Part shown: in pieces, positions 21,687 to 32,927 of the stretch
How the letters are laid out: each line of letters begins with the position of its first letter
Numbering within the stretch: the stretch's first letter is position 1
From: an uncultured archaeon
Lineage (GTDB): Archaea; CAYQAE01
Reading direction: 5' to 3'
DNA: 55,343 nucleotides
NCBI GenBank assembly: GCA_964415445.1
Contig: CAYQAE010000003.1
Coordinates: 6,192 to 61,534, forward strand
Position numbers and translations under genes: made by a program
The notes under the pieces: generated by a model
What the model saw: only the letters and a program-made list of their open reading frames with translations
The model's database searches: none
Told to the model about the DNA's origin: nothing

Positions 21687-24600
21687 TTATTCTACTATTG
21701 TTGTTTCTTTAAAATCATTTGCTATATTTATACTTTTTTCTGGTACAAAATGAGTCCCATTCCATTCTGCCCATTTTTCTCCAATATATGCACTAGTGCC
21801 CCAATAATATGTTTCATATGAATACTCTAAATCTTCAGGATAAACTGAAAGTGTAAATATATGTCCACCACAAGTACCGTGTGAATTTGTATTAATTGTA
21901 ATATATTCAAAGATTTCTGCTGTTAATAGGAAGTTTTCACTGTAGAATAAACCTGTAGATATATTTAATGTGGTATCTAAAGGTAAGTGTTCCCAACTGA
22001 CAGATATTTCATAATTATTTGGAGGTCCTGAAATAGGATCTGTAACTGTATCTGGTGCATCAACAATTACAACTCCCCTCGATAGTCTAAACCAGTCTTT
22101 TACAGTTATAGTATCTGAGCCTAAATCATATGATATAAAATTATATCCTATCTTTCCTGATTTAATTTCATCATCTGACCAACTTCCCCAGTATTTATAA
22201 GATGGATTAAATGCATATATACTAATGTTTCCGCTACCACTATCTATCTCAATTACTTTTGCACCACTGTTTGCAACATTACTTCCTACCTTTATTGTTC
22301 CATAATACATCTCAATATCTCGATCTATATCATATGAGATATTTACAAAATTAGCTGAACCTGCATATCCTATATATGATGAAGTAAGTGATACTCCTTT
22401 TGCATCGACGTCTGAACCTTCAGTTTCATGTCCAGCTACTTTCCATGTCCAAAGATTTTGTATGGAATAAAATGCAACTTTTTTAGCCCTATTTTCTTTT
22501 ACAATACCAAGCCATTCTTCTGAATCATAGTTGTGGAATCCTTTTTCATCGCTAACTTCTGCGACTCCTTTCCACCATTCATCTGAAAATTCAAATAATG
22601 ATATACCCAAAACTGTACCTTCTGATACCAGCTGATTTATCTTAAGTATATGTTTTTCAAAATATGCTGCTTGGTGTCCTTGGGTGTGGTTTAAATCACT
22701 AGATAGGGTATGCCACCCCGTTTCAGATATGAATATTGGTTTATTTGTATAAATTGATTTGATTGTATTTACGGTATTTACTAAATCATCTGTATTCTCT
22801 GGCCTTGTTTCTCCACCAAAATATGAATAAGCTGCAGTAGATATTATATCTAAAAAGCTAAAGTCATACTGTGAATCTGTGATTATATCTTGTCTTGCTG
22901 AATAGGTAACAGGGTGCGAGTCAACAGTATCAATGTAGCTTTTAATATCACTAATAAGTGAAATAGCATCTTGTTTATTTTGAGAATTTGCTACATATTC
23001 ATTCCCAACACCCCACATCAAAAATGCGGGTTCATCTCCATAATTTGTAATTATATTATCAATAATTCCTTCATATTCACTTGAACTTCCACCATTAACA
23101 TCAATTCCTGCAATTACATAAAGCCCCTTTTCTTTGGCTCTCTCAAATAAAACATCTGCAGCTGTTTTTGAACCATAACTATATTGATGTAGTAAATTTA
23201 TATCATAAATTCTAATTGTATTAGCGCCCATCTCTCTAATTAATTCTAAATCACTTGTAATTACATCTTCTGAGACATATTCATTATCTTGAGGTCTCAA
23301 TCTTCTGGTAAAAGGTGAATAGCAGACTGATTTGGATACAAATTTTTCTCCATCTACATACATTTCCTGTCCTGATATTGATATATCAGGTGCGTCTGTC
23401 AATGAATCTTTTTCTGGAACTCTAGCAATCCATGCTGAAAATTTATAATCACTATAGGCTACATCTATTGATGGTGGTACATAATAATTAAATGTAACTA
23501 ATCCTGAAGGTATATTTTCAGGTAATCTGTATTTTTGTATAAATTCTCCATCAGTTATGTCTCCAGTTTCTGAATCAGATAATGTTAGATAAAGATCATA
23601 AGTACCTTCTGGGATATTAGTCCAACTAATTTCTACAGGATATACTTCTGATGGCCAAACCTCTGTAGGATATGATGTAATTTTAACTCCATCATATGCA
23701 CTAAACCAATACCTATCTTCATATGTGGTAGTTCCTTCTGTCCATCTCAAATAAAAGTATCCGTCTTCAGCAGGAGTATTCCATCCTGATTCTCTTGTAG
23801 GAAGAGTTAGATATTTTTTAATGGTATTTTGGTCGTTTAATCCAGTTAAAGTATTAGCTAATAATTCTTTTCCTGATTTTGTTTTTGCACCATATTCAAG
23901 ATCAATATTTTTACCTGTGAAATCATATGAAAGTTCTATTGGAAAGATTCCACCTCTATAAACTGTTGTAGGTGCGTCTGTTATTGAAGCGCCTGATGCA
24001 CCTACATTTTGTGTATCTGATCCAATTGTAATATCAATTTTACCTGATGAATTATAAGTTATATCCAAATATGCTATCCATCTCTGATCTAGGGAAGGAT
24101 CTATTGGCCCTACATCGACACTACCAAATTTATATGATCCAGTTAGTTCAGCTAAGGAAGTTATTGGATATGATCCTTTTACAGCTCTTGTATCATCCAT
24201 AACAGTTGCCCAGTACGTTCCATCTCCTTGTTGTAGTTCATAATATACAAAGTATGGTTCATCATAGAATGATTTCATATCGCCATAAGTAGAGTCCCAA
24301 TATTCATAGGATTCATTAGAGAGATTATACCACGATACTGTAACAGAAACTACTTCATTTGTAGTAAGTGTTGTAGGTGCAGTTATATTTGGTGCGTTTG
24401 ATGCAATAAATGGACTTTCAAAATATACCATATCTGAAAAGTCAAAAACATACCAATTTGCTTGCTGATTTATTGAATCCCACCCCGCAGATGCAGTAGG
24501 TACCCAAACGTATGTATGGTTATATCCTCCAGCAGGTATGGTTATATAGTTTGGATCACCTATTTGATTTCCATCTGTATCTTTTATACCAAATGCAACC

Positions 24601-32927: not shown

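Follow-up and report, generated by a model that had tools for sequence, protein, structure and literature searches.

The giant protein and its catalytic domains

Does an uncultured archaeon display a giant enzyme on its surface and, if so, on which glycan would that enzyme act? The question is raised by an 11.2-kb open reading frame (ORF) on a 55,343-nt stretch of DNA (contig CAYQAE010000003.1, positions 6,192 to 61,534), hereafter the window, to whose positions all coordinates refer. The original prediction, made by reading the sequence without database searches, had described a single ORF for a membrane-anchored protein in which two paralogous barrel-type glycosidase domains stand among repeated modules. 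The frame is indeed uninterrupted on the minus strand between 21687 and 32927 and comprises 3,746 codons counted from a TTG; an 11.2-kb ORF at ∼30% G+C is impossible by chance. The ATG at 32888 is likely the start codon of the giant: AGAAGGT lies 3 nt upstream of it, and the public gene call of an identical protein (P0016; 3,733 aa) begins there, at Met14 (MFRSYKK). Residue numbers below are those of the 3,746-codon translation (P0016 numbering is lower by 13). An oligo-T tract lies downstream of the stop codon. Overall, we assign a probability of about 60% to the reading that the giant is an archaeal cell-surface stalk enzyme with two probable endo-beta-glucanase domains. The coding sequence and its two predicted glycoside hydrolase (GH) domains are as follows.

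21687..32888, minus strand: the giant's coding sequence (3,733 aa with the ATG at 32888 as start; the mechanical ORF reaches the TTG at 32927)
29316..30263, minus strand: GH domain 1 (D1), aa 889-1204, a predicted clan GH-A (beta/alpha)8 barrel, GH157/GH158-like
29859-29861 and 29568-29570, minus strand: codons of the predicted acid/base Glu1023 and the predicted nucleophile Glu1120 of D1
22416..23396, minus strand: GH domain 2 (D2), aa 3178-3504, a paralogue of D1
22998-23000 and 22722-22724, minus strand: codons of the predicted acid/base Glu3310 and the predicted nucleophile Glu3402 of D2

Matches to the family's hidden Markov model (HMM) covered aa 889-1214 (D1) and aa 3178-3504 (D2). As the original prediction had proposed, the two domains are paralogous, being 37% identical over about 350 aa (E = 4e-69), and all of the motifs that it quoted were found: LMWTIGNEV in D1 and LMWGVGNEY in D2, PIFVAETGW and PIFISETGW, VAYSP and VCYSP, ANAIRIYD and ANTIRIYD, EYSDEWWK and EFSDEWWK, and EEHWGIV and EEWLGIV, respectively. 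In an alignment of 15 sequences (A1, numbered on the D1 model) both catalytic Glu residues were invariant, namely E131 of the NE acid/base pair and the nucleophile E228, together with N130, H161, Y191, the DEWWK box and E288.

We modelled D1 with AlphaFold2 using A1. The model (predicted local distance difference test (pLDDT) score 88, predicted template modelling (pTM) score 0.90) contained the eight beta/alpha units of a (beta/alpha)8 barrel, with E131 immediately after strand 123-130 and E228 inside strand 224-230. A Foldseek search of the PDB with this model retrieved GH2 beta-glucuronidase barrels at a template modelling (TM) score of ∼0.79 and LaGH157 bound to laminaribiose at a TM score of 0.80 (root mean square deviation 3.4), with E about 1e-17 for the GH2 and GH157 barrels. 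As predicted from fold and conserved residues, D1 and D2 are intact clan GH-A retaining glycosidase domains. Because the catalytic Glu and the GH-A signature residues have been kept despite 63% divergence, we argue that the two domains have been under selection for catalysis.

Family placement and probable substrate

Scans of the whole giant against Pfam and NCBIfam returned no matches, and the GH signal appeared only when the domains were searched in isolation. The top Pfam match of both isolated domains was then GH72 (PF03198), with 50.7 bits for D1 and 31.9 bits for D2 against a gathering threshold of 25.9, confined to the N-terminal half of that family (profile positions 8-189 of 314). GH2_C spanned the full length of D1 at 43.9 bits; GH2_N and the GH2 immunoglobulin (Ig) domain were not detected by Pfam anywhere in the giant, and membership in GH2 was rejected because these sugar-binding jelly-roll and Ig accessory domains are absent. 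The score of D1 against GH17 (PF00332; 15.8 bits, E = 0.011) lay below the gathering threshold of 28.2 and covered the ETGW...DEWWK half only; similarly, D2 matched the GH17 structure 6fcg (E = 4e-4) over about 70 residues in the nucleophile/DEWWK region.

Searches against PDB sequences widened the choice, with D1 matching GH2 barrels, GH158 (6pal), LaGH157 (9fz9, full length) and GH72. In a single-sequence phmmer comparison, D1 matched LaGH157 at E = 9e-8. With the A1 profile, GH158 scored 95.2 bits and GH157 94.5 bits, followed by GH2 (at most 78 bits), GH72 (at most 63 bits) and a GH5 mannanase (46 bits). GH158 (6pal, 9oro) thus gave the best profile score, and also the best single-sequence E-value, among the beta-glucanases, yet its alignment was partial (profile positions 72-246 or 76-290): it shares the half of the barrel from strand 2 to the nucleophile and ends there, so that the DEWWK/EEW boxes are unaligned. 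GH158 enzymes are, moreover, small and bacterial. The GH157 alignment, in contrast, took in the whole barrel, including D(E/G)WWK and EEWFG. Over >300 aa, the identity of LaGH157 is 23% with D1 and 26% with D2, and the residue mutated in the LaGH157 E-to-A variant (9g4n) aligns with the ETGW Glu of the giant. GH157 is an endo-beta-1,3-glucanase family (PMC10229575). Overall, by sequence comparison the nearest characterised relatives appear to be GH157, GH158, GH72 and GH17, plus GH2, and placement in any one of them is not secure.

The original prediction had likened the domains to GH17/GH72-type beta-1,3-glucan-active enzymes and had regarded these as mainly eukaryotic or fungal. The first part survives in so far as GH72 scored above threshold and GH17 weakly, although the closest families by profile are the prokaryotic GH157 and GH158. 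The second part is not needed. An exhaustive HMMER search with A1 of 1.84 billion representatives, clustered at 50% identity, returned 14,439 clusters at E <= 1e-3 and 1,489 at E <= 1e-30, which describe a mostly bacterial, prokaryotic family. A eukaryotic origin was rejected in view of the thousands of prokaryotic homologues and the uniform G+C content at third codon positions (GC3).

Could the domains be active retaining glycosidases on some other beta-glycan, such as mannan, galactan, glucuronide polymers or the surface glycans of a partner or host? The top Foldseek matches are GH2 beta-glucuronidases and galacturonidases, GH2_C covers the whole of D1, GH5 mannanases match the profile, a GH26 gene lies in the Hadarchaeales gene cluster described below, and, with D1 and D2 just 37% identical, their specificities could differ. 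However, an exo-pocket is formed in GH2 enzymes by sugar-binding and Ig domains that the giant lacks, the sequence profiles favour GH157/GH158, and the GH94, GH16 and GH3 neighbours of relatives suggest glucans. We therefore regard another substrate class as unlikely, though it deserves to be taken seriously, and prefer beta-glucans.

We next turn to those relatives. A word-indexed search yielded 15 homologues, at most 32% identical, of which the best was a PKD-domain protein of a Hadarchaeales archaeon. Matches in genomes came mostly from Elusimicrobiota, Planctomycetota, Verrucomicrobiota, Omnitrophota, Bacteroidota and Acidobacteriota, plus one Methanosarcinales metagenome-assembled genome (MAG). 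Among the best 150 family members, 19 contained at least two matched stretches and seven exceeded 2,000 aa; multi-copy relatives include P0018 (3,478 aa, two copies), P0022 (1,875 aa, two copies) and P0019 (three copies), as well as P0017 and P0074, and the other domains catalogued in such proteins were Big_7, Big_13, PKD, fn3, CBM30, F5/8-type C and dockerin. Because D1 and D2 score 209 bits against each other and at most 129 bits against any retrieved homologue, a duplication inside the lineage is indicated.

Seven loci of relatives were compared, and five of them are catabolic: two have GH94, three an ATP-binding cassette (ABC) sugar importer or MalK-type ATPase, and one GH16 with GH3. The informative loci are listed below.

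Hadarchaeales locus (P0002; L030, CAZSKY010000003.1, 1-17380): three paralogues of the GH domain, GH94, GH26, a MalK-type ABC ATPase, an L-type lectin and PKD/CBM30 proteins
Bacterial locus P0012: GH94, a substrate-binding protein (SBP), two permeases, then the family member
Bacterial locus P0010: family member right after a sugar ABC importer (SBP and two permeases)
Bacterial locus P0003: two ABC permease genes at the edge of the locus precede the family member
Bacteroidota MAG locus L006: GH16 with malectin, GH3, a major facilitator superfamily transporter, GH5 and a GH63-like gene

GH94 was not identifiable in the P0010 and P0003 loci (upstream in P0010 is a contig-edge gene without Pfam data). 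The GH94 family comprises phosphorylases that act on beta-linked gluco-oligosaccharides (cellobiose, laminaribiose and beta-1,2-oligoglucans), and GH16 together with GH3 forms the usual laminarin toolkit. The GH94, GH16, GH3 and importer neighbours therefore support an extracellular endo-beta-glucanase role for the family, and, by analogy, the genomic context of relatives points to beta-glucan catabolism rather than to the processing of the archaeon's own matrix or of a partner's glycans that the original prediction had suggested. A paper on laminarin use by deep-sea Planctomycetes-Verrucomicrobia-Chlamydiae (PVC) bacteria makes no mention of the GH family of the giant. As a separate observation, the same gene string follows a family member in three unrelated bacterial samples (L032, L033 and L034): an unannotated ∼319-aa protein, a ∼900-aa OmpA-domain protein, small unknowns and a weak DUF5683 match.

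These loci also bear on the possibility that the GH domains are not nutrient degraders at all but transglycosylases by which the archaeon reshapes a matrix or wall polymer of its own, extracellular and of beta-glucan type, in the way that fungal GH72 Gas proteins and some GH17 enzymes remodel matrix or wall by transglycosylation. The lead of the glucanosyltransferase family GH72 in Pfam and the GH17-like ETGW/DEWWK boxes fit such a role, as do features of the window itself, which lacks uptake and downstream catabolic genes, carries a gene for UDP-glucose dehydrogenase and places two secreted, anchored alpha-barrel proteins next to the giant. Against it, the GH72 match is limited to the N-terminal half and the GH157/GH158 hydrolases rank higher at the profile level; the majority of relatives' loci are catabolic; and no beta-glucan synthase gene was seen in the window. 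On balance, remodelling appears distinctly improbable compared with hydrolysis of beta-glucans for nutrition.

The stalk, its anchor and the integrity of the gene

The remainder of the giant consists largely of two alternating module types, A and B, as the original prediction had claimed. For mapping we combined separate A and B profiles with one derived from nine A+B pairs (A2). An A-module motif, N[VI]SW.N[LI].NGT[YF]N, written as a degenerate DNA pattern, had 4 matches in the window compared with 0 in 100 shuffles. The resulting segments, from the N terminus onward, are given below.

32742..32798, minus strand: N-terminal transmembrane segment/signal-anchor, TLAAMLISSLLLLGTTFYL, aa 44-62, the sole 19-residue stretch with a mean Kyte-Doolittle hydropathy >1.6
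31620..32741, minus strand: diverged, sequon-rich N-terminal extracellular region, aa 63-436, weakly A-like at aa 209-265 and B-like at aa 370-413
30372..31619, minus strand: first module block, A (aa 437-541), A+B (aa 545-740) and A (aa 748-852), as placed by hmmsearch using profiles A2, A-only and B-only
30276..30350, minus strand: N-terminal part of a split B module, aa 860-884, B-profile positions 7-31
29166..29315, minus strand: C-terminal part of the split B module, aa 1205-1254, B-profile positions 35-83
23418..29105, minus strand: main stalk, A (aa 1275-1380), eight A+B pairs (aa 1389-3076) and A (aa 3083-3170), from profiles and model
21690..22409, minus strand: C-terminal tail, partial B (aa 3507-3563) and last A (aa 3637-3710), from profile matches

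Fourteen A modules were clear, starting at aa 437, 545, 748, 1275, 1389, 1600, 1791, 2000, 2221, 2426, 2634, 2847, 3083 and 3637, with one further weak copy at aa 209. Nine B modules were clear (starting at aa 647, 1501, 1699, 1903, 2116, 2320, 2536, 2741 and 2975), in addition to one split by D1, one partial (aa 3507) and one weak (aa 370). This amounts to about 10-12 A+B pairs in place of the ∼15 originally estimated. D2 is flanked by an A module on one side and a B module on the other. D1, in contrast, sits inside a loop of a B module, because the flanking B fragments rejoin when aa 885-1204 are deleted in silico, giving a single B match over positions 7-83 at 32 bits.

We modelled one A+B pair (aa 1592-1790) with AlphaFold2 and obtained two all-beta sandwiches (pLDDT 88.3, pTM 0.80). 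Foldseek assigned a probability of 1.0 to tandem Ig-like, FN3, MG and transglutaminase C-terminal domains, at low TM scores (0.3-0.44); as modelled, the A and B modules are Ig-like beta-sandwiches. Their sequences stand apart. None of the nine pairs matched a Pfam family at E < 0.06, and the A2 profile found no homologue among 5.8 billion proteins, a negative that is not absolute, since the same search missed the giant itself when queried with D1. A scan of a genome collection with the giant returned only relatives of the GH domains, at 20-28% identity, and no protein with A/B modules; likewise, an A2 profile search found no other ORF of the window carrying them.

The membrane anchoring proposed in the original prediction is supported by the segment at aa 44-62. 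As this is the sole hydrophobic segment and follows a Lys/Arg-rich N-terminal tail, anchoring with the N terminus inside and the C terminus outside is predicted; a hydropathy scan of the whole protein revealed no C-terminal anchor. Consistent with an extracellular location, the giant contains 161 N-X-S/T sequons compared with 58.5 +/- 7.2 in composition-matched shuffles (2.75-fold enrichment), or 4.3 per 100 aa compared with about 0.4-1 in cytoplasmic neighbours and 0-1.5 across the cytoplasmic proteins of the window. This enrichment fits what is probably a heavily N-glycosylated extracellular archaeal surface protein. The last ∼660 residues (aa 3083-3746; 21690-23681, minus strand) are Asn-poor (3-7% versus 9-12%) and nearly sequon-free at unchanged GC3, and D2 has 1 sequon compared with 12 in D1. 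Judging from this distribution, the distal tip is possibly left unglycosylated.

With about 80% of its length given to an Ig-like stalk, like the giant adhesins of bacteria and archaea, and with no recognised carbohydrate-binding module (CBM), the giant might be chiefly an adhesin or structural fibre whose GH-like domains act in a lectin-like manner, without turnover. However, the catalytic Glu and GH-A signature residues are intact in both paralogues in spite of their divergence, and we regard this explanation as very improbable.

Is the repetitive gene itself sound? The original prediction had spoken of highly similar module pairs around 26.0 and 27.9 kb. Repeats do occur near both positions, and their similarity is high in relative terms only: the closest units in DNA (25957-26039 and 27817-27899) are 72% identical over 83 nt and the closest in protein (aa 1516-1697 and 2131-2317) 45% identical. 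DNA repeats within the gene do not exceed 89% identity or 83 nt, Tandem Repeats Finder detected no arrays in it, and G+C and GC3 are even along its length. Further, the A-module DNA pattern matched one contig of the JGI metagenome collection (Ga0209536_100660223, locus L029, 1-1300), the last ∼480 bp of which (34-40% G+C) encode a colinear orthologue of aa 717-872 that spans the end of a B module, an A module and the start of the next B module. This fragment is 64% identical to its counterpart, compared with only 44% for its best paralogous match inside the giant, and a related organism therefore shares the local module order. That contig looks chimeric itself, its first ∼800 bp having 50-65% G+C and a carboxyltransferase-like reverse ORF, with the orthologue beginning right after stop codons.

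Collapse or chimerism of the repeat array was thus unlikely, and was rejected in view of old, diverged repeats, even composition and an independent contig with matching module order: the giant is repetitive and comes from a metagenome-assembled contig whose checked proteins are all singletons in a 15-billion-protein collection, yet, with the frame open for all 3,746 codons, an assembly artefact is scarcely credible.

Proposed working, setting and significance

We propose the following working model. The signal-anchor at aa 44-62 would, following the positive-inside rule, hold the giant in the membrane with ∼3,670 residues outside. These would form a stalk in which about 26 Ig-like modules, of two lineage-specific types, alternate, probably densely N-glycosylated and, going by general Ig-domain dimensions, roughly 100 nm long when extended. 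Two retaining GH-A domains would be mounted on it, one in the proximal quarter, nested in the B-module loop, and one near the distal tip. In each, the Glu of the Asn-Glu pair that closes strand 4 (E1023, E3310) would serve as acid/base and a Glu on strand 7 (E1120, E3402) as nucleophile, and each would cleave beta-glycosidic bonds by double displacement, as is the mechanism of the clan. The substrates would most likely be soluble or matrix beta-glucans, beta-1,3-linked and laminarin-type or related, and endo-cleavage near the cell would let the resulting oligosaccharides be imported. A more specific version, in which D1 and D2 represent a distinct GH-A family bridging GH17, GH72, GH157 and GH158, built into a ∼100-nm glycosylated 'fishing rod' that holds two endo-beta-glucanases at different heights, is put forward tentatively and is more doubtful than the general reading.

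Several points weigh against the stalk-enzyme reading. Identity to any characterised enzyme is at most 26% and the exact family is uncharacterised; GH-A families vary widely in specificity, and GH2 glucuronidases and galactosidases are nearly equal to the beta-glucanases in Foldseek structural score. The A and B modules match no known CBM that would account for substrate targeting, and the signal-anchor and glycosylation are predictions only. In terms of gene context, no sugar importer, GH3, GH16 or GH94 gene lies within the window, and, among the seven loci compared, L003 and L007 are uninformative.

The window bears the conserved archaeal L21e-Rpo4-DUF655-KsgA cluster. Homologues of its DUF655 protein are solely archaeal, the nearest named being from Hydrothermarchaeaceae, Promethearchaeota, Hadarchaeota and Nanoarchaeota (51-58% identical), and the organism, with a G+C content of about 28%, is therefore an archaeon.

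Divergent from the giant stand two tandem paralogues (33179-35299 and 35301-37502, plus strand), each with a signal peptide, a C-terminal transmembrane segment with a basic tail, LanC-like/GH88-like alpha-barrel repeats, 3-5 TSP3 calcium-binding repeats and 3.1-3.4 sequons per 100 aa. Their sequence features suggest that they may be further secreted glycan-active or glycan-binding members of a surface locus; the 33179-35299 protein had no match among PDB sequences. In a 360-aa protein (11174-12256, plus strand), which has a signal peptide and a C-terminal transmembrane segment, sequons are denser (5.3 per 100 aa) than anywhere else in the window; neither Pfam nor the PDB yielded a match to it. 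A very low-G+C (23-25%), strongly skewed stretch encodes a 1,332-aa Lys/Glu-rich coiled-coil protein (12843-16841, plus strand), after which comes a 1,077-aa polytopic membrane protein (17357-20590, plus strand); neither of these two belongs to a Pfam family. Genes of defence or mobile type lie scattered around the locus (1181-1918, 2941-4197, 6502-7389 and 37830-38252) and encode an AbiEii toxin, an AAA_14/DUF4143 ATPase (its gene inserted in the KsgA-DUF655 interval), an Mrr-like nuclease and a PIN-domain protein.

How does the giant compare with known systems? Like its domains, GH157 enzymes (LaGH157 of Labilibaculum antarcticum, PDB 9fz9/9g5g, and BcellWH2_01931 of Bacteroides cellulosilyticus) are clan GH-A (beta/alpha)8 barrels that align over the full length, sharing the NE acid/base, the strand-7 nucleophile Glu and the D(E/G)WWK and EEW(F/W)G boxes. 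They reside on the cell surface (PMC10229575), as is predicted for the giant. Unlike GH157, the giant carries two copies, at 23-26% identity, on a 3,733-aa archaeal stalk, outside any polysaccharide utilization locus (PUL) or SusC/D context. GH72 (Gas/Gel/Phr) and GH17 are likewise retaining GH-A families and act on beta-1,3-glucan, the GH17 likeness residing in the ETGW and FE.(S/F)DE.WK boxes of the C-terminal half; GH72 enzymes, however, are fungal, glycosylphosphatidylinositol-anchored and equipped with a Cys-rich domain that the giant lacks, and the matches of both GH72 and GH17 are partial and weaker than those of GH157/GH158.

The overall design had been thought unusual for archaea. This holds for the archaeal version with its orphan modules, and less so for the principle: bacterial multi-copy relatives, up to 3,478 aa, also carry the GH domain 2-3 times per large secreted protein, interspersed with Ig-like domains, and a multi-catalytic archaeal glycosidase is known, the secreted MDG of Thermococcus sp., with GH5, two GH12 and two CBM2 domains in one polypeptide (PMC12265866). 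MDG differs in having other GH families and classical CBMs, in being far smaller and in lacking a long Ig-like stalk, and the bacterial relatives lack the two orphan module types, the N-terminal anchor, the dense sequons and the nested GH domain. Thus, the multimodular surface glycosidase design is already known, with bacterial precedents; new here are its occurrence in an archaeon, the two types of orphan module with Ig-like folds, the nesting of D1 in a stalk module and the size, the greatest in the top 150 of the family.

The part that archaea play in turning over polysaccharides outside the cell is poorly documented (PMC12265866), and the two-domain surface enzyme would, if the reading is true, be a concrete candidate for archaeal beta-glucan degradation. 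Were the tentative fishing-rod version to hold, it would be direct genomic evidence that a low-G+C archaeon depolymerises laminarin-type glucan outside the cell with its own, non-bacterial scaffold. The orphan modules and the nested barrel further illustrate the ways in which giant surface proteins are put together. Finally, the family of the catalytic domains is very large and is split by current Pfam between GH72 and GH2_C, and characterising either domain would annotate thousands of proteins.

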